NCBI GenBank assembly: GCA_964530725.1
Contig: CAZGYV010000002.1
Location: 26,046-90,045, forward strand
Direction: 5' to 3'
Source of the DNA: an uncultured Candidatus Saccharibacteria bacterium
Lineage (GTDB): Bacteria > Patescibacteriota > Saccharimonadia > CAILAD01 > CAZGYV01
DNA: 64,000 nt
Part shown: positions 3,611 to 57,815 of the stretch, one piece after another
Layout: every line of letters begins with the position of its first letter
How positions within the stretch are numbered: position 1 is the first letter of the stretch
Notes under the pieces: generated by a model
Seen by the model: only the letters and a program-made list of their open reading frames with translations
The model's database searches: none
Told to the model about the DNA's origin: nothing
Position numbers and translations under genes: made by a program

Positions 3611-3659
3611 TCCTTTCGTCCTTTCGGACTCATCAGAATGAGTACACACTCATTGAGGA
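3611..3659 (-). ncRNA. Type III hammerhead self-cleaving ribozyme (complete catalytic core)
   Basis: Minus strand 5'-UCCUC^AAUGAGU-GUGU-ACUCAUU-CUGAUGA-GUCC-GAAA-GGAC-GAAA-GGA-3'. Helix I is a 7-bp hairpin with a GUGU loop. The core is C3-U4-G5-A6-U7-G8-A9. Helix II is GUCC/GGAC with a GAAA loop and G10.1-C11.1. G12-A13-A14 are present. A15.1-U16.1 pair and helix III is AGGA/UCCU. The cleavage triplet is C-U-C, so H17 = C. The core is almost identical to the classic sTRSV-derived CUGAUGAGUCCGUGAGGACGAAAC. Confidence 0.7.
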
Positions 3660-10829: not shown

Positions 10830-11807
10830 TTAACCTCGCATGGAAGCTAGTGGTGTCTGTGGCATCGAGGGCTCTAAGTGGACTGGCGCGTTAGCGGACA
10901 GAGCGCTCGAGTTCACCGGTCGCGCCGTTGATTCTGCCGGCAAATGGTCCGATGGATTTACCTGATTCGAGACCTGTTGAGGACCGTTCAATCGTGCCGG
11001 TGGGTGGTTTATGGGCTTTTTTTTTGACCTCGAGTCGGCCTGACCATGCCCATTCTCAGATGAATAAAGCACTTTGACAATTTCTTGCTGCTTAGCGCCA
11101 GCTGCCATTAGCTGAGCTGCTACCGTCATCGCCTTGGGGGTCGTGTTGGGCGCGCTGAAGCGATTGGTGCTGGCCATAATGCCGGCTAGCATCGCCGTCG
11201 CGATGTGGGCGTCAATCAAGCCCTGGCCAAGAGATTCGGTGATCGAGACGAGTATTTCCGCAACACTAGCAGCCGACTGATCGACCAAGTTAACCGAGCC
11301 GTAGCTGTCATTAATACGATGGTAATCAATATTGATTAAATGAATGCCATCAAAGATCGTCGGATTAGCTTCGTGCAAGCGATCAAGCTTAGTCAGGCTC
11401 GGTACGCCGATCGCGATAACGAGGTCAAACTGATAAGCCCCGTAGCCATAGCTGGCGTCTTGAGCGGTAAAATTGCCTTGGTGTGGCGTCACCACGATAT
11501 TGAGCTTACCGTCCTCGATCGTGTATTTGAGCTTATCGACCGTTACCTTGCTCATATCAAGGCTGATTATAAAATCGCGCACCCCATCAAGACCCTGACT
11601 AATCTTGGTAGTATCAAGGATCGGAGCGATTTTAGGCAAGCTATCGCTCACGATCGCGTAGGCGTTCTTGCCCAGCTTAGTCAAAATCGCCTGCATGGCG
11701 ACTAGGCTGGCAAGCTGATCATTATTAGGTTCGCGGCCAGTCACGAGCAAAATCGTGCTGGCTTGGCGAATTAATTCTGTAACCTGTTGTTTAGGTGTTA
11801 ATTCCAT
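10830..11807 (-). CDS. nrnA: DHH-family phosphoesterase (NrnA-like nanoRNase / pAp phosphatase) with a low-complexity C-terminal tail
   Basis: DHH motifs (INIDYHRINDSYG) and a DHHA1-like region. The last ~80 aa are P/S/N/Q-rich. The stop abuts the truB start. Confidence 0.7.
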   Translation of the reverse strand: MELTPKQQVTELIRQASTILLVTGREPNNDQLASLVAMQAILTKLGKNAYAIVSDSLPKIAPILDTTKISQGLDGVRDFIISLDMSKVTVDKLKYTIEDGKLNIVVTPHQGNFTAQDASYGYGAYQFDLVIAIGVPSLTKLDRLHEANPTIFDGIHLINIDYHRINDSYGSVNLVDQSAASVAEILVSITESLGQGLIDAHIATAMLAGIMASTNRFSAPNTTPKAMTVAAQLMAAGAKQQEIVKVLYSSENGHGQADSRSKKKPINHPPARLNGPQQVSNQVNPSDHLPAESTARPVNSSALSANAPVHLEPSMPQTPLASMRG

Positions 11808-11881
11808 AGTTTTTTAAAATAGACAATGGGTGATTGTATCAAAAGATAAGCATTTTGTCAAGTAGGGATAGTGGTTATGTT

Positions 11882-11907
11882 AAAAGAAAAAGCCCATCTT
11901 GAGGGCT
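11882..11907 (-). terminator. Rho-independent terminator of the minus-strand structured RNA
   Basis: Minus strand: hairpin AGCCC-UCAAGAU-GGGCU followed by UUUUUCUUUU. Confidence 0.55.
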
Positions 11908-11911
11908 AAAA

Positions 11912-12490
11912 ACCTTCAAAATGGACTCAGGTGGAGTGGAAGCGGAGGGCATCAAACCTAGATGTAGGCAGGTGACGCCCTCGACGCTTCCTTCGGGCTT
12001 ACACCTCAATGCGCAAGCGCACTGAAACCCAGGAGAGAACCTCGATCTCGGACGAGGACCCCCCTTGTCTCACCAGCGATTACCAGGCACTAGTGAGATC
12101 TTACAAGAGGAGGTGGCTGCCGGAGCTTGAAAGCCCGACCCTAAAGCTTAAGCTCTAGCTCCGGCAGCCGAATCGCGCAGACTGGCGACCCTCCTCTTGG
12201 CTCTTAAGCCACCCTTGCGCAGCTACTGCCAGTGAGGCGATGATTCGCAAGCTCACCAACAGCCCACCCGCGCAAAACTCAAGAGCCTTCCTCTTACTCA
12301 GCGTCTTCCAAGGAAGGGGCAGAGCAAGGAAACCTGGCGAGGACCCCATGACTGGGAGGAAACAGGGTCCTCGCCTACAGACTTCTCCCTGGCTACGGCG
12401 ATGCGGATCGCCGCGGCGACGGGGCTGGGAGTATCCTTATGTATGAGAGAAGTCTGGCGGCTCTCCTGTCCACTAGGGAGCAGGAGAGAG
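11912..12490 (-). ncRNA. rnpB: Large structured non-coding RNA with its own promoter and terminator; candidate RNase P RNA (rnpB), assignment tentative
   Basis: There is no credible ORF. A strong sigma70 promoter lies upstream and a terminator downstream on the minus strand. Minus-strand motifs resemble RNase P: GGGAGAAGUCUGUAGGCGAGG resembles the P4 5' strand GGAGGAAAGUCCGGGCUCC. AAGGGUGGCUUAAGAGCC resembles GGGUGCGGUAAGAGCGCACC. CCUGGUAAUCGCUGG resembles CCAGGUAACGCCUGG. UGUAGGC can pair with the distal GCCUACA as a P4-like long-range helix, and the 5' GUGGA..GGAG can pair with the 3' CUCC..UCCAC as a P1-like helix. Motif order and the ~580-nt length are not fully canonical. Confidence 0.4.
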
Positions 12491-12497
12491 TGCCGCT

Positions 12498-12526
12498 ATA
12501 ATACACCCGAAACCAAGACGAGTCAA
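12498..12526 (-). promoter_or_regulatory. sigma70-like promoter of the structured RNA
   Basis: Minus strand reads TTGACT-17 nt-TATTAT. Confidence 0.55.
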
Positions 12527-12648
12527 TAGTTTTCTCGGTTTTATATCTAGAGTAAATTAGTCTGCCTTGAGCACTTAAGCTATTTACAAATCATTCATTT
12601 TCCGCTAAGATAGCCTTTGATCTAAAAAACAGGTAAAAGTAGTAAGTT

Positions 12649-13035
12649 ATGCCAATTATCAAATCTGCTATCAAAAGAGACCGGCAGCAAAAAAAGCGCC
12701 GCGATCGCAATATAATGATCAAGACCGGCGTCAAGATCAAGCAAAAAGCTGCTCGAAGCGCCATCGCCGATGATCCTAAAAAAGCGCAGGACGCGCTGAT
12801 TGCTGCTATTGCCGAAATTGACCGCGCGGTCAAAAAAGGCGCTCTGCACAAAAATACCGGCTCCCGTCGGAAAAGCCGCCTCACCCTAGCCTACAACAAA
12901 GCCGCCGAGAAACCTTTTGGCAGCGGCAAAGCTACTGCTGCCAAAAAGCCCGCAGTTGCCAAAAAAGCTACGGCCAAAAAGCCGGTAGCTAAGAAGCCAG
13001 CTACCAAAACCGCCGCCAAGAAAACGACTAAGTAA
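12649..13035 (+). CDS. rpsT: 30S ribosomal protein S20 with a Lys/Ala-rich histone-H1-like C-terminal extension
   Basis: The S20 core is MPIIKSAIKRDRQQKKRRDRN...ALHKNTGSRRKSRL. The ~45-aa tail is AKKPAVAKKATAKKPVAKKPATKTAAKKTTK. Confidence 0.85.
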   Translation: MPIIKSAIKRDRQQKKRRDRNIMIKTGVKIKQKAARSAIADDPKKAQDALIAAIAEIDRAVKKGALHKNTGSRRKSRLTLAYNKAAEKPFGSGKATAAKKPAVAKKATAKKPVAKKPATKTAAKKTTK

Positions 13036-39710: not shown

Positions 39711-39724
39711 ACTGTCAACTTAGT

Positions 39725-39752
39725 TTGACAAAACATACGAAAATGCTATTAT
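39725..39752 (+). promoter_or_regulatory. sigma70-like promoter of the large ncRNA candidate
   Basis: TTGACA-16/17 nt-TATTAT. Confidence 0.45.
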
Positions 39753-39759
39753 TTTATTA

Positions 39760-40265
39760 TCCGCTGCCCTAGAGTAGCGGCGCCCTATCCCTACCCAAGG
39801 GAGTAAACATGAGGTTAACAAAGGTGGGTGGCGACTCGTAGTCGTCGTTTCGATCTAAGAAGCGTTAAGCTGATTTTCAAGGCATCTATCAGGCCAGAGA
39901 TGGCATGATAGCAATTATTTAGGTGGCAAGCCTTGAAGCCAGCTGCTGCCGAGTGGATGCCTTAAGCCTTCCCTGCCCCCATAAGCGTCTAATGGCGCCA
40001 GGGCAGATGTGGCGAAAAAGGAGTGGCAACCACGAGCAAAAGCTTCGATGAGTGATTGAGACACGATAGTCGTCACATCATAGAGCAGTAACTGGCGCGA
40101 TGAGCTAAAAGCGCCTGCCAACAAGATTGGCAGTGCGAAAAGCCCAAGCGCGCCGACTCCTCAAGAAAGCGAGCCACCCGCTAACAAAAGTGCTTTGACG
40201 GCAGCACTCCGAAATGCCGTCTCACTTAGCAGCCTTATCGACCTTGTTGTCGATAGGCTGTTTTT
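39760..40265 (+). ncRNA. ~500-nt structured non-coding RNA candidate of unknown class, promoter- and terminator-bounded
   Basis: No + ORF of 60 aa or more and no RBS-led ORF. Ends in the terminator ccttatcgac-cttgtt-gtcgatagg-ctgTTTTT (40233-40265). Long-range complementarity GGUGGGUGGC (~39835) / GCCACCCGCU (~40190), and the 5' GCUGCC pairs with the 3' GGCAGC. Several internal hairpins. Confidence 0.45.
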
Positions 40266-40364
40266 ACATACCCAAGTCGATATTTATGTTAATTATTTTT
40301 GACTGTTTTATAGGTGTTTTATTAAGATTATTTAACTTTTTTATGATTTTTTTGTCAATTTTAC

Positions 40365-40393
40365 TTGACAGTTTTTTGATAGTTAATTATACT
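40365..40393 (+). promoter_or_regulatory. sigma70-like promoter upstream of the small-peptide cluster
   Basis: TTGACA-17 nt-TATACT. The downstream leader has G/C-rich hairpins (ggaggggttggttg...cagccgaacccctcc). Confidence 0.45.
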
Positions 40394-40580
40394 CTTATTA
40401 TCTATCGCAAATGATAGAGTACGTTGACCGAAACGGAGGGGTTGGTTGAAAACTAAAAAACCAGCCGAACCCCTCCCCTCTCCAGGGGAGGAGGTGGATA
40501 TAGATCCGCTCACAACCGGACCGTGGTTGTGATGTTAGTAGCTCTTTAGTTAGCCACAGGCACTACGAAAGGATGCCAAA

Positions 40581-40760
40581 ATGTGTGATGACCTAGAAGA
40601 AACTCCTCCTGATACAGGCACAAACATCTGTGACCTATCAGATATTTCCACTGGCAGTCCAAGAGACTACGCCGGTGGAGATTGTAACGACGACAACGTG
40701 GGCTTCTTCGAGCCCAGACGAGCCGTAGAACGACAAGGAGCGCTCGCGAGAGCGGCGTAA
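40581..40760 (+). CDS. Small acidic Cys-containing peptide (59 aa), first of three tandem small ORFs
   Basis: MCDDLEETPPDTGTNICDLSDISTGSPRDYAGGDCNDDNVGFFEPRRAVERQGALARAA. Below the 60-aa track threshold, found by reading. Confidence 0.35.
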   Translation: MCDDLEETPPDTGTNICDLSDISTGSPRDYAGGDCNDDNVGFFEPRRAVERQGALARAA

Positions 40761-40761
40761 A

Positions 40762-40857
40762 ATGTTGCCCTGTCCAGAAGATGGGCTATGGTGCAGTCCT
40801 GGCCCAGACGACATCGAGGAATTCTTCCCGACAGAAGGAGGAAGCGATCCTCTCTAA
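40762..40857 (+). CDS. Small acidic Cys-containing peptide (31 aa)
   Basis: MLPCPEDGLWCSPGPDDIEEFFPTEGGSDPL. Starts 1 nt after the previous stop. Shares the EEFFP/GFFEP motif with the first peptide. Confidence 0.3.
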   Translation: MLPCPEDGLWCSPGPDDIEEFFPTEGGSDPL

Positions 40858-40895
40858 CCAGACATGTTAGTATCGCCTACTACAAGGAGATAAAA

Positions 40896-40985
40896 ATGGC
40901 TGACGTCGAATACGACAACGGCACCGGCGAGATGGACGAGTGGGACGGAGCCAACTGGGGCTTCGGCGGCTCTTCCCCTAAGTGA
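40896..40985 (+). CDS. Small acidic peptide (29 aa) with a strong RBS
   Basis: AAGGAG-7 nt-ATG. Product MADVEYDNGTGEMDEWDGANWGFGGSSPK. It is the C-terminal part of track ORF 40788..40985. Confidence 0.4.
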   Translation: MADVEYDNGTGEMDEWDGANWGFGGSSPK

Positions 40986-41011
40986 CCAAGTAGTCACCGG
41001 TTAATTACCAC

Positions 41012-41047: not shown

Positions 41048-41171
41048 CCTCTTGATACCTATAAGCATTAATGGTATAATGTGGATTGTAATATCGGCAT
41101 GTGACGTTTTGGGACAACTTCTCAAAAAACAGCACAACCGGATTGGCACCACAACCTGGGAGGTAAAGACA

Positions 41172-41390
41172 ATGGAGGGCATCCAATTGGATGTGAGTTG
41201 GCCGCTGCTCGTGACCGCCGTCGTCGGCATCATCACGCTCTGGTCGGTCTTGACGGGCCTGAAGGAGCACGAGCTGCGTAAGTACCGTGCTGCCCAGGAA
41301 GAGACCCAAGCTCGCTACGAGGAGCTCGAACGTCTCCACTTCCAACCCCATCCACCCCAACCCACCCATCGTCTCAAGTCGGTGGGGTAA
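41172..41390 (+). CDS. Small single-TM membrane protein (72 aa)
   Basis: GGGAGG RBS. Product MEGIQLDVSWPLLVTAVVGIITLWSVLTGLKEHELRKYRAAQEETQARYEELERLHFQPHPPQPTHRLKSVG. Followed by a two-hairpin terminator (41407-41503). Confidence 0.45.
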   Translation: MEGIQLDVSWPLLVTAVVGIITLWSVLTGLKEHELRKYRAAQEETQARYEELERLHFQPHPPQPTHRLKSVG

Positions 41391-45867: not shown

Positions 45868-46581
45868 TTAGATAGTGCCTTTTAGGTAAGCTTGGCGGCG
45901 CTTTTCAGGAAGTCGCTCGATCGCGTAACGTAGCATTGTCCGCGACATGGTCTTATAACGCTCATTTTCGGCCAAGAAATCTTCCAAGATCTTCTGGTCG
46001 CATCTTTTACCCACTTCGCGCAACATCCAGCCGACAGCTTTGTGGATCAAATCATGCTCGTCATCAAGCAGTAGCTCGGCGAGCTTGAGCGACCATTCGG
46101 GATTACCTTTTTGGATGAAATAAAATGTCGAAATAATGGCGATCCGCCGCTCCCAGATGCTCGAAGACCGGGCCAACGCAATCAAAACGTCTTTATCACG
46201 CTCCTCCAAAAAATTGCCAACAATATAGCCGGCACTCGAGTCAACAATGTCCCAATTGTTAACATATTCGGTGTGATTTAAATAAAAGTTGTAAATTTCT
46301 TCCTTGTGATAATCATCAGTCTGCTTGTACTGCATGACCAAAATTAGCACCGCCAAGAGACGCTCTTCGTGAACCTTGCTTTTTAAGAGCGTTTCGATTT
46401 CCGCCAAGCTTAGATCGCGATGGGCTTTGGCGACTTTGCGTAAATTTGGCACGGCCACGCCGATAAACTCGTCTCCTTCGCCATACTCGCCCGGACCGGT
46501 TTTGAAAAACCAAGCCGAAGCTTTGGCGCGTTCCGGATCGATGTAAGTTTTCAGCTCCCTTCTCAAACTGGCAATAGACAT
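45868..46581 (-). CDS. DNA alkylation repair protein (AlkD/AlkC-like HEAT-repeat glycosylase family)
   Basis: 237 aa, all-helical repeats; ...NWDIVDSSAGYIVGNFL...WERRIAIISTFYF..., typical of the AlkD family. Confidence 0.6.
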   Translation of the reverse strand: MSIASLRRELKTYIDPERAKASAWFFKTGPGEYGEGDEFIGVAVPNLRKVAKAHRDLSLAEIETLLKSKVHEERLLAVLILVMQYKQTDDYHKEEIYNFYLNHTEYVNNWDIVDSSAGYIVGNFLEERDKDVLIALARSSSIWERRIAIISTFYFIQKGNPEWSLKLAELLLDDEHDLIHKAVGWMLREVGKRCDQKILEDFLAENERYKTMSRTMLRYAIERLPEKRRQAYLKGTI

Positions 46582-46710
46582 GTAATGATTTTACCATAAG
46601 GAAAAGCGCGGATTAGAAACCCGCGCTTTCGTATTTACCTAAAAAGCTGTTTGCCCTTAAGGTGATTTTAGCCCAATAATTTGTTTTGACCTGGAGTAGG
46701 GCGGGCTTAC

Positions 46711-46932
46711 TTACCACCAGCTAGGCCAGCCTGTGAAGTGACCGCTCACGAGCATGGCGACGAACAAAGCCACCGTCACCAACGCGCTTATGAAAGTAGT
46801 GCCGCCAGTGGCCTGTTCGCTGCGCGAGCTAGTGTCGTGCGACACGATTGCGATGGCCGTGACCGCAAAACCGATAAAAAACAGCCCCATGAAAATGGTT
46901 GTCAACATCAGCGCTCCCAAGCTTTTCAGCAA
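46711..46932 (-). CDS. Small two-TM membrane protein
   Basis: 73 aa, hydrophobic. A terminator hairpin lies downstream at 46597-46625. Confidence 0.35.
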   Translation of the reverse strand: MLKSLGALMLTTIFMGLFFIGFAVTAIAIVSHDTSSRSEQATGGTTFISALVTVALFVAMLVSGHFTGWPSWW

Positions 46933-56387: not shown

Positions 56388-56498
56388 CTTTATTCTCCTT
56401 ATTACTTATAATCATTTGATTACAAGACAGTATCACATTATAGCTTTGTAGTCAAATGATTATGTTATTATACTCGGCTTTTTCCTAGGATTAAGGAG

Positions 56499-56723
56499 AT
56501 GTCAAATGACTACAAAGAAGAAGAATTTCTCAATAAATTAGCTACTAGAATAGCGCAGTTAAGGCATAATAAAAAGATTACCCAAGAAAGTCTAGCTGCA
56601 GAAGCTGGCCTCGATAGAGTAGCTATAGCCAATATAGAAACGGGCAGGCGGCGTCCCACCGTTACCACCTTATACCGTCTAGCAAAAGGTCTAAAAGTAG
56701 ACATTATTGAATTATTTAAATAG
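56499..56723 (+). CDS. XRE-family HTH transcriptional regulator
   Basis: LATRIAQLRHNKKITQESLAAEAGLDRVAIANIETGRRRPTVTTLYRLAKGL, a canonical HTH_3. Confidence 0.75.
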   Translation: MSNDYKEEEFLNKLATRIAQLRHNKKITQESLAAEAGLDRVAIANIETGRRRPTVTTLYRLAKGLKVDIIELFK

Positions 56724-56819
56724 AAATTGTAACGTCACCTAGATGCCGAGAGACGCTATTCAGAGCTCGGCTTCGCTTTCAACCAAAATCTCGACCTGGA
56801 CTTCTCGTCCAGATCACGA

Positions 56820-57227
56820 TTCTGGCGGGGAGAGCGGGATAGCGGCTTTCGTGCCGGGATTATGAGCGGGTAGAGTCTTAATGCGCCCTCGAAAAACAAG
56901 AAAGCCAAAGTTATACTTTGGTGCTTCTAGTTTTGAGCCCGAGGCGCGAAGAGGCTTTTGCCTACTTTTGGCCGTAATACAAAAGTAGAAGGAGAATTTG
57001 ATGAGTTTTTTGGAAAAGTTAATGAGAAGATCCTGAATCAAGTTCAGGATGACAGAAATAAAGGAGAGAGGGATAGCGGCTAACGCCTTCTCCGCTCAAT
57101 GATTCTCGATCCGCCAGCTGGCGGACTGCGAGTCATTTCGCTCCACTGAACCCTCCTGCTTCGCAGGCACGGGTTCTCATCCCTTCATATCAGCAAAAAA
57201 GCCCGAGACAAGCTCGGACTTTTTTGC
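56820..57227. repeat. Non-coding region with two degenerate direct copies of the tRNA-Ser 3' end and repeated ccgaga...gctcgg hairpins; ends in a + strand intrinsic terminator
   Basis: tggcggggagagcgggatagcgg (56823-56845) and ggagagagggatagcggct (57063-57081) resemble the tRNA 3' end tggcggagagggagggattcg (57228-57248). The terminator is gcccgagacaagctcggac-TTTTTT (57201-57227). A tiny RBS-led ORF MSFLEKLMRRS begins at ~57000. Confidence 0.45.
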
Positions 57228-57317
57228 TGGCGGAGAGGGAGGGATTCGAACCCTCGATACAGTTGCCCGTATACCGCCTTTCCAAGGCGGCGCACTAGTC
57301 CACTATGCGACCTCTCC
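57228..57317 (-). tRNA. tRNA-Ser (anticodon GGA), class II with a long variable arm, CCA encoded
   Basis: rc sequence GGAGAGG-TC-GCA-TAGTGGACTAGT-GC-G-CCGCC-TTGGAAA-GGCGG-TATACGGGCAACTGTATC-GAGGG-TTCGAAT-CCCTC-CCTCTCC-G-CCA. U33/A37 flank GGA. Confidence 0.9.
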
Positions 57318-57572
57318 GCGTCGAGAATGGCTTCAACTTTCAGCTAATCGCTCAAACGCGATTCGTCTTCAGTTTTCGCCAAACCTCTCCTTTTCAAACC
57401 AACAAACGGCTTCGCCTGGTTTGTTAGTTTGGGTTTTATTTTAACATTATCAAATTAAAAGATTACTTTTTATTAGAAGCCCTGTCTCGCGCTCGCCCCA
57501 ACTACTCATCCCTCCTGTTATGAGATACCGGACAAGATACAGTTATACCAGACCGCGAACCAAAAAACAAGC

Positions 57573-57797
57573 TTACTTCTTGCTCAGTAATAGGATAAAC
57601 ACCAGAGCCGCGAGATTAAGTACCAGGGTGATGCCAAATACCCAACCCATCGTGACCACAATATCGAGCGAGCCGCCGCAAAGCGAACTACAACCGACTT
57701 GTGACTTGGCCAAAAGATAGCCGCCCACCGCCAGCTCAATCACAACGGCCACTACCATGGCAATCGTTAGCCAGCCAAACATTTGTCTTCTCGTCAC
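57573..57797 (-). CDS. Small two-TM membrane protein
   Basis: 74 aa, hydrophobic, ends KK. Confidence 0.35.
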   Translation of the reverse strand: MTRRQMFGWLTIAMVVAVVIELAVGGYLLAKSQVGCSSLCGGSLDIVVTMGWVFGITLVLNLAALVFILLLSKK

Positions 57798-57815
57798 TAC
57801 CCCTCCTCGCCCTTG

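Follow-up and report, generated by a model that had tools for sequence, protein, structure and literature searches.

What occupies the long gap between rpsT and nrnA in an uncultured Candidatus Saccharibacteria bacterium? In the 64-kb stretch of contig CAZGYV010000002.1 analysed here (hereafter the window), these two divergent genes are separated by 841 nt (11808-12648); the usual rpsT-nrnA gap in most other Saccharimonadia is 110-260 nt. A first-pass annotation, made from the sequence alone, had proposed that the gap encodes a promoter- and terminator-bounded structured RNA of about 580 nt on the minus strand, either a candidate RNase P RNA or a different large non-coding RNA (ncRNA), to be checked with Rfam scans and comparative covariation. 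Our analysis supports the second of these alternatives: the gap very probably holds a genuine structured ncRNA gene that is not RNase P, and this gene represents a new family within the large structured bacterial ncRNAs, restricted to a small clade of Saccharimonadia. On balance, the best overall explanation is probably a stand-alone minus-strand ncRNA gene of ~610 nt, the product of which may act in trans by displaying loops.

The transcription unit

The limits of the gene are marked by the following sites:

12526-12498, minus strand: sigma-70-type promoter of the RNA, with TTGACT (12526-12521), a 17-nt spacer and TATTAT (12503-12498); 10 of 12 positions match
11907-11882, minus strand: intrinsic terminator, with the GC hairpin AGCCCUCAAGAUGGGCU (11907..11891) followed by the U-run UUUUUCUUUU
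11861-11833, minus strand: nrnA's own promoter, TTGACA-17-TGnTACAAT, strongly conserved; it lies outside the RNA and marks its downstream limit

The promoter and the hairpin-plus-U-run terminator recognized in the first-pass annotation are thus both present, and promoter-like sites number 4, versus 0.9 expected in shuffled sequences. From these signals transcription is predicted to start near 12491-12494, and the geometry of the promoter gives a transcript of ~610 nt (~12491 to ~11883); the bounds proposed initially hold, but the length is nearer to this value than to ~580 nt. Across all the homologues described below, the -35 TTGACT is invariant, a -10 box of the TAnnAT type is kept at 17+/-1 nt, and a GC hairpin with a U-run is found at the same point in every case, with a different sequence. 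Since a separate nrnA promoter comes after the terminator, the RNA constitutes its own transcription unit.

Homologous loci and hairpin architecture

The same locus was retrieved from Logan/ENA assemblies and GTDB genomes using NrnA as anchor. All the homologues of the flanking NrnA are from Candidatus Saccharibacteria/Saccharimonadia metagenome-assembled genomes, and the host is thus a bacterium of the candidate phyla radiation (CPR). The divergent rpsT/nrnA synteny is ancestral and was found at 64 loci, down to ~40% NrnA identity. A homologous gap of 726-840 nt is present in every locus with an NrnA at least 72% identical to that of the window, and seven distinct lineages carry the element (window/L061; L001; L003; L005; L006, which is the same as L056-59; L007; L060). 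Intergenic identity among these lineages is ~60%, between genomes with NrnA ~75% identical, the exceptions being L003/L005/L006 (68-70%), L007 versus L060 (87%) and the window versus L061 (98%); BLASTN and nhmmer barely link the homologous intergenic regions.

The predicted fold of the minus-strand RNA reaches -318 kcal/mol, versus -243 for dinucleotide shuffles (z = -10.8), and that of the plus strand -266 kcal/mol (z = -4.8). Fold z-scores range from -10.4 to -13.5 across all seven homologues, and in each of the seven the sense strand folds to a lower energy than the complementary strand. This sense-strand advantage, such as G-U pairs would give, argues for selection on an RNA and not on DNA palindromes. 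The element is organized as a chain of ~10 hairpins (H1-H10), mostly with long stems and separated by linkers of 0-6 nt:

12457-12496, minus strand: H1, the 5' hairpin, 15 bp; its loop bears the variant motif CUCCCUAG (12473-12480)
12378-12456, minus strand: H2, a long hairpin with CAGACUUCUCUC / GGGAGAAGUCUG as its closing strands; includes the inverted repeats I2 and I3
12336-12375, minus strand: H3, 14 bp, apical loop UUUCCUCCCAGUCA of 12-16 nt with the core CUCCCAG at 12352-12358
12329-12335, minus strand: H3-H4 joint, conserved (A)AGGUUUC; AGGUUU is common to all six lineages compared
12289-12331, minus strand: H4 hairpin, 16 bp
12199-12287, minus strand: H5, a long hairpin of 36 bp in the window, with the G-rich GGGUGG at 12264-12269 and 12209-12214
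12105-12198, minus strand: H6, a three-way junction with a closing helix of the GGAGG/CCUCC type, a short H6a and a 23-bp H6b (GGCUGCCGGAGCU...AGCUCCGGCAGCC)
12068-12098, minus strand: H7 hairpin with the loop CCUGGUAAUCGCUGG; a tRNA-like cloverleaf is found at this position in L007/L060
11995-12065, minus strand: H8 and H9, a pair of hairpins whose position varies, found in the window and L007/L060 and lacking in L001, L003, L005 and L006
11938-11991, minus strand: H10, a long hairpin of 22 bp; a second (C/U)UCCCAG copy is located in its apical loop in L003, L005 and L006

When folded independently, the homologues display the same domains in the same order (H1, H2, H3, the AAGGUUUC joint, H4, H5 with GGGUGG, H6, H7, H10 and the terminator), despite their low intergenic identity. 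A hairpin occupies the H1 position in all seven, with a different sequence, the H6b-type hairpin varies between 13 and 23 bp, and H3 of L006 is reduced to a tetraloop. A search for long-range or pseudoknot pairing between the linkers found none that is conserved.

The gap is non-coding. It contains only short open reading frames (ORFs), including one of 64 amino acids at 12155-12349 which the first-pass annotation had already considered unsupported. When the six-frame ORFs of at least 25 amino acids were compared all-against-all among the seven homologous intergenic regions, no conserved ORF emerged; the matches are short and located over conserved nucleotide motifs only. In the closest pair of regions (87% identical), the ORFs match in several frames and on both strands, and the element thus behaves as non-coding DNA. 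A protein-coding reading was ruled out on these grounds, the small protein of the sister clades (see below) not being encoded here either. Interpretation as a repeat, a mobile palindrome or a CRISPR or TIGR array was also ruled out: there are no tandem repeats in the sequence, the only direct repeats are two-copy ones of 10-14 nt at chance level, and no further copy of the element exists elsewhere in the 64-kb window.

Compensatory changes in the helices

Because MAFFT alone misregisters H4 and the closing helix of H6, covariation was analysed helix by helix. In the four-sequence alignment of H6, 97.6% of the cells pair and 8 of the 21 pairs are changed on both sides; none of 500 shuffles was as good, and slid controls gave 0-2 such pairs. 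As a held-out test, H6 was modelled from L003, L005 and L006 only; this covariance model finds the window copy at the expected position and on the expected strand (12102-12203, minus strand) with E = 4e-7. For the basal helices of H3-H5, taken from a structure-free MAFFT alignment of five lineages, pairing reaches 85.6%, and both positions have changed in 11 of 28 pairs (0/500 shuffles); the counts are 5/9 for the H4 helix (helix 3) and 4/8 for the H5 helix (helix 4). For the full-length sequences of L003, L005 and L006, RNAalifold predicts 129 pairs, 25 of them with compensatory changes, and the consensus recovers H5, H6, H7, H10 and the terminator. Between L007 and L060, 29 of the 45 touched pairs remain canonical, mostly via G-U intermediates. 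These covariation numbers are modest, yet they all go in one direction, and the comparative check proposed at the outset thus reveals compensatory changes in both H6 and H3-H5.

Comparison with RNase P and other known RNA families

Rfam 15 was searched at gathering thresholds, with E<=10 on the 951-nt region 11750-12700, and with E<=5 on the whole window; the relatives were scanned with E<=5 (six homologous loci) and E<=10 (the L007 copy). None of these scans returned a match to RNase P (RF00010/RF00011), transfer-messenger RNA (tmRNA), 6S, signal recognition particle RNA, OLE, ROOL, GOLLD, HEARO or raiA, neither in the window copy nor in the homologues; the only matches were hairpin noise of the miRNA or snoRNA type. 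The Rfam check thus leaves the element without a family. ARAGORN detected no tmRNA in the window or in the six homologous loci and, both searches being empty, tmRNA (RF00023) was ruled out.

In the case of RNase P, these negative scans need to be read with caution. The RNase P RNAs of CPR bacteria can be divergent and missed at Rfam thresholds, and cut-offs down to 5 bits were needed with RF00010 (PMC8172020). As the sensitivity floor of our scans is ~13 bits, the exclusion of RNase P rests on the combined evidence and not on Rfam alone. Fuzzy probes for the CR-I, CR-II/III and CR-V regions of RNase P gave no conserved match in the seven homologues, and the P4 pseudoknot formed by the CR-I (GAGGAAAGUCC...) and CR-V (ACAGAA..CGGCUUA) strands is not present in them. 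Long-range helices of the P1/P2/P4 type are also lacking, as is the multi-helix core P5-P7/P10-P12: the conserved helices are all local, and the RNA ends 3' in an intrinsic terminator.

What, then, of the resemblances which had led to the RNase P proposal? The three segments do exist in the window copy, but each forms part, as a strand or a loop, of a local hairpin. GGGAGAAGUCUG (12378-12389), the AAGUC strand described as 'P4-like', is the 3' arm of H2 and pairs with CAGACUUCUCUC ~60 nt upstream; at the position of GAGAAGUCUG in this arm, the relatives have unrelated sequence. The 'GGGUG...UAAGAGC' motif corresponds to GGGUGGCUUAAGAGCC at 12199-12214, on the 3' side of H5, and the stem covaries. 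The last segment, CCUGGUAAUCGCUGG, is the loop of H7. None of these superficial resemblances is conserved in the relatives. It is true that the 64-kb window has no other RNase P candidate, but this is expected for 64 kb of a ~1 Mb genome. The element has in common with bacterial RNase P RNA a length within a factor of ~1.5, a structured stand-alone gene and these few chance similarities; in addition to the model match and the motifs, it lacks the P1 end pairing, the universality and the slow core evolution of RNase P. Its absence from the locus in most Saccharimonadia and the ~60% identity between its copies are unlike the evolution of an RNase P core, which would have to be far slower. A highly divergent RNase P RNA is therefore scarcely credible, and the locus should not be annotated as rnpB.

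A loop motif and a tRNA-like module

An unbiased k-mer comparison of six independent lineages identified CUCCCAG, UCCCAGU and CUCCCAGU as the only 7- or 8-mers common to all of them, none being shared in 300 shuffles. CUCCCAG occurs 10 times, whereas 0.25 copies are expected and no more than 3 were seen in any of 2000 shuffles. Each molecule displays CUCCCAG(U) 1-3 times. With close variants included ([CU]UCCC[AG]G), the copies lie in apical loops, and for all copies but one the mean unpaired probability is 0.6-0.85, versus ~0.3 for the whole RNA. The motif is found in the H3 loop in six lineages, and additionally in H2 (window, L001) or H10 (L003, L005). The H3 loop, with an unpaired probability of 0.85, is the best conserved primary sequence in the family; in H2 of the window copy, CUCCCAG (12425-12431) lies in an open internal region with an unpaired probability of 0.68. 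In L006, in which H3 is truncated, the motif is retained in the H10 loop. Such persistence of the motif in loops, even when the host hairpin changes, is in favor of a loop-display logic and of a trans-acting or sponge RNA.

In L007 and L060, a tRNA-like cloverleaf takes the place of H7 (L007:2207-2275 (+) and the corresponding segment of L060). It is made up of an acceptor-like stem, a short D-arm, an arm bearing CUCCCGG in the anticodon position, and a T-arm of canonical form (CAGAGG-UUCGAUU-CCUCUG). This module has a weak Rfam match to mascRNA-menRNA (13.9 bits, E 8.7); it is not called by ARAGORN and is absent from the Rfam tRNA matches. The loop motif itself fits the Y-U-NNN-R-N layout of an anticodon loop, the anticodon being CCC.

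A potential mRNA target was also considered. In the 64-kb window, only one start-codon-proximal site is complementary to the H3 loop, namely CCUGGGAGGUAAAG at 41154-41167 (+); 8 nt separate CCUGGGAGG from the downstream ATG at 41175, the start of a membrane-like ORF of 72 amino acids (41175-41390, +). This ORF has no homologue beyond itself among 5.8 billion proteins, and the site was dropped as a target for this reason. In the 22 nt upstream of 34 long ORFs, only a few Shine-Dalgarno (SD)-like sequences are found, and many genes of the window have a TATAAT-like box ~7-12 nt before the ATG, suggesting that leaderless mRNAs, or mRNAs with very short leaders, may be widespread in this host.

Phyletic range and the sister clades

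Beyond the seven lineages, the H6 covariance models R1 and R2 were run on over 50 further Saccharimonadia loci, with no credible match; the match of L009 is a generic long hairpin which scores on both strands. Scanning the JGI metagenomes with NrnA retrieved nothing above 62% identity. A motif scan of IMG/VR returned 9 matches, about the chance expectation and none with the H3 hairpin, hence no credible viral match. Several sister clades (L008, L064/65, L009-11, L017, L043) also have an enlarged gap at this site. They were examined and rejected as homologues, since their content is different and consists of a small ORF on the rpsT strand plus other sequence.

This small ORF of the sister clades, ~52-60 amino acids long (e.g. 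...NAHRACHALRAAEHEVEDLVHRLAHLPKR...), is located as follows:

L008:2661-2840, L064:1247-1426, L010:2307-2462, L011:2050-2205, L017:2297-2452; (-) strand in each: sister-clade small ORF

Its amino-acid identity is 46% between L008 and L064 and 62-65% among L010, L011 and L017, and no trace of it exists in the family of the window. L009, L010, L011 and L017 share in addition a strongly conserved and apparently non-coding block, AAAGCGGACAGGGCUAUAAAUACUAG...AAAGUCAAU...GGCGUAAAAUUCGC (alignment A7, columns ~330-470), and their intergenic regions also have a conserved GGCCCGGGGAUUCGUCCCCGGGCC hairpin, with no Rfam match. This block could be another unannotated RNA or a regulatory element.

Neighbouring genes and other features of the window

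The RNA gene is flanked by nrnA, encoding an NrnA-like phosphoesterase of the DHH family, and by rpsT:

10830-11807, minus strand: nrnA
12649-13035, plus strand: rpsT

The minus-strand genes are arranged in the order pnp, rpsO, truB and nrnA, and then comes the 841-nt gap. No genes for IscB/TnpB or Oap proteins were seen in the immediate neighbourhood examined. The whole element is bracketed by an 11-nt direct repeat (TCCATAGTTTT / TCAATAGTTTT, 10 of 11 positions matching) at 11803-11813 and 12523-12533; one copy overlaps the start codon of nrnA and the other the -35 of the RNA promoter. This repeat, which by eye is not evident in L003, may be due to chance or may be the trace of an insertion event.

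Elsewhere in the window, a sub-threshold match to the L20 leader (RF00558; 26.6 bits versus a gathering threshold of 58.7, E 0.49) is found at 46594-46718 (-), just upstream of the ORF 45868-46581 (-). The type III hammerhead ribozyme (RF00008) is matched weakly and only in part at 3615-3654 (-) (23.4 bits versus a gathering threshold of 48.5, E 1.7), which is probably noise. Three stretches have no ORF of at least 90 amino acids: 39711-41000 (1290 nt), 56388-57815 (1428 nt) and 406-1126 (721 nt). The second contains a tRNA-Ser(GGA) at 57231-57317; no other Rfam match was obtained in these three ORF-poor stretches.

Discussion

How might such an RNA work? The helices are maintained by selection, the sequences of their stems being free to drift; the primary sequence that is retained consists of CUCCCAG(U) in the exposed loops, the AAGGUUUC joint and the GGGUGG element. 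The exposed C-rich loops may be the working parts of the molecule and bind a G-rich partner, which could be either an RNA segment with CUGGGAG/GGGAGG or a protein. The hairpins would provide a rigid, nuclease-resistant scaffold for their display, and the whole molecule would be a stable trans-acting regulator or sponge. We put forward this specific mechanism only tentatively.

There are precedents for both kinds of partner. The C-rich loops of RNAIII and RsaE pair with G-rich ribosome-binding sites, and the loops of CsrB-type sponges bind a protein. Staphylococcus aureus RNAIII (RF00503) and RsaE/RoxS resemble the element in being a stand-alone RNA of ~500-600 nt with its own promoter and terminator; moreover, RNAIII is made of ~10-14 hairpins with drifting stems, and a C-rich motif of the UCCC type is repeated in its exposed apical loops. 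The features of such an RNAIII-like class, namely a transcription unit of its own, hairpins arranged in a chain and a C-rich loop motif in repeated copies, are all found here, the class being one of function and not of homology. There is indeed no similarity to RNAIII in sequence or by covariance model. RNAIII encodes delta-haemolysin, whereas the element has no embedded ORF, and the present host belongs to a different phylum with few SD sites and has a longer motif, CUCCCAG(U). CsrB/RsmZ sponges are likewise multi-hairpin RNAs presenting a repeated short loop motif, but they carry 5-20 copies of A(N)GGA, compared with 1-3 copies of CUCCCAG in the element, which matches none of their Rfam models; we know of no CsrA-like partner here.

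Several observations weigh against this explanation or limit its reach. The transcription and the stability of the RNA are deduced from sequence signals only. With seven distinct sequences, several of them related, the covariation statistics have limited power; the second-round H6 model recovers L001 at the expected place with a marginal E of 0.046, and it does not find L007/L060, which are too diverged. Ribozymes or ligand-binding RNAs do not usually combine long, near-perfect stems with so few conserved nucleotides at the junctions, and such stems would be substrates of RNase III. The search for targets within the 64 kb identified no partner of the RNA, and the genome looks poor in SD sequences and rich in leaderless genes, which weakens a model based on SD sequestration. 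Lastly, the very narrow phyletic range permits a non-essential or even a selfish origin.

The size of the molecule (~600 nt), its very high structure content and its short linkers, which would allow coaxial stacking, are also consistent with a large architectural RNA, a ribonucleoprotein scaffold comparable to OLE, ROOL or GOLLD, the loops of which would make tertiary, kissing or protein contacts. The conserved three-way junction, the joint sequences (AAGGUUUC, GGGUGG) and the tRNA-like module embedded in one lineage would fit such a role. OLE, ROOL, GOLLD, HEARO/IscB omega RNA and raiA similarly exceed 500 nt, combine very high predicted structure with covariation and have unknown or emerging functions; tRNAs are often found in association with GOLLD and ROOL loci, which recalls this module. 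However, these RNAs have ornate folds with multiple pseudoknots, while the element is a simple chain of long hairpins, has no conserved pseudoknot or long-range pairing, is far narrower in phyletic range and matches none of their Rfam models. Its junction nucleotides are poorly conserved, and the gain, loss or swap of hairpins between close lineages (H8/H9, H7, and H3 in L006) is hard to reconcile with a precise three-dimensional architecture, making us regard a scaffold as rather unlikely. Less likely again is a cis-acting leader of the nrnA-truB-rpsO-pnp operon, the terminator of which would be read through or processed (e.g. by RNase III or PNPase) so as to adjust the expression of these RNA-metabolism genes. 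The RNA is directly upstream of these genes and co-oriented with them, its long perfect stems are RNase III-type substrates, and the T-arm of the L007/L060 module resembles a substrate of TruB; yet beyond the canonical terminator nrnA has a distinct promoter of its own (11861-11833), which is highly conserved, this same promoter serves many genomes without the element, and no alternative terminator/antiterminator pairing is conserved.

The layout of the loops raises another idea, of low probability but kept owing to the anticodon-loop layout (CCC) and to the L007/L060 cloverleaf: a CPR-specific decoy or sponge that mimics an RNA of the translation machinery. The loops (Y-U-CCC-A-G) have the anticodon-loop layout of tRNA-Gly(CCC) and also the anti-SD core CCUCC, and in one lineage the same motif stands at the anticodon position of a complete tRNA-like cloverleaf. 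The RNA might thereby titrate a factor recognizing tRNA anticodon arms or SD-like sequences, such as an anticodon nuclease or toxin, a tRNA-modifying or -charging enzyme, or the ribosomal subunits, in a host which is an episymbiont with a minimal genome. A tRNA-like module within a long RNA is also known from MALAT1 mascRNA and the bacterial Y RNA YrlA; here the cloverleaf is confined to one lineage and has no ARAGORN call. A neutral or selfish hairpin-rich spacer, i.e. the remnant of an inserted element or palindromes at the DNA level, appears more improbable still. It would account for the very narrow distribution and the fast sequence turnover, and the site is an insertion hotspot where other clades carry the small ORF or other genes. 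But a spacer of this kind would explain neither the invariant -35 and the terminators kept in all lineages nor the maintenance of helices by compensatory changes, the strand asymmetry in favor of the transcribed strand and the strict conservation of one loop motif; other copies in the window and credible viral matches are also missing.

In the literature on large or structured ncRNAs in Saccharibacteria or Patescibacteria, we found nothing relevant beyond the paper on CPR RNase P cited above. Bacterial ncRNAs longer than 500 nt with a conserved structure are rare, and the known classes (RNase P, tmRNA, OLE, GOLLD, ROOL, HEARO, RNAIII) have been instructive. CPR bacteria have genomes of ~1 Mb under strong reduction and, to our knowledge, almost nothing is known of their riboregulation. 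A non-coding gene of 0.6 kb whose promoter, terminator and helices have all been retained in several species, despite genome reduction, is therefore probably useful to its hosts. The family also constitutes a natural experiment, in which free-drifting stems can be set against a fixed heptamer loop and a swapped module, and which points to the residues worth mutating or employing as bait.

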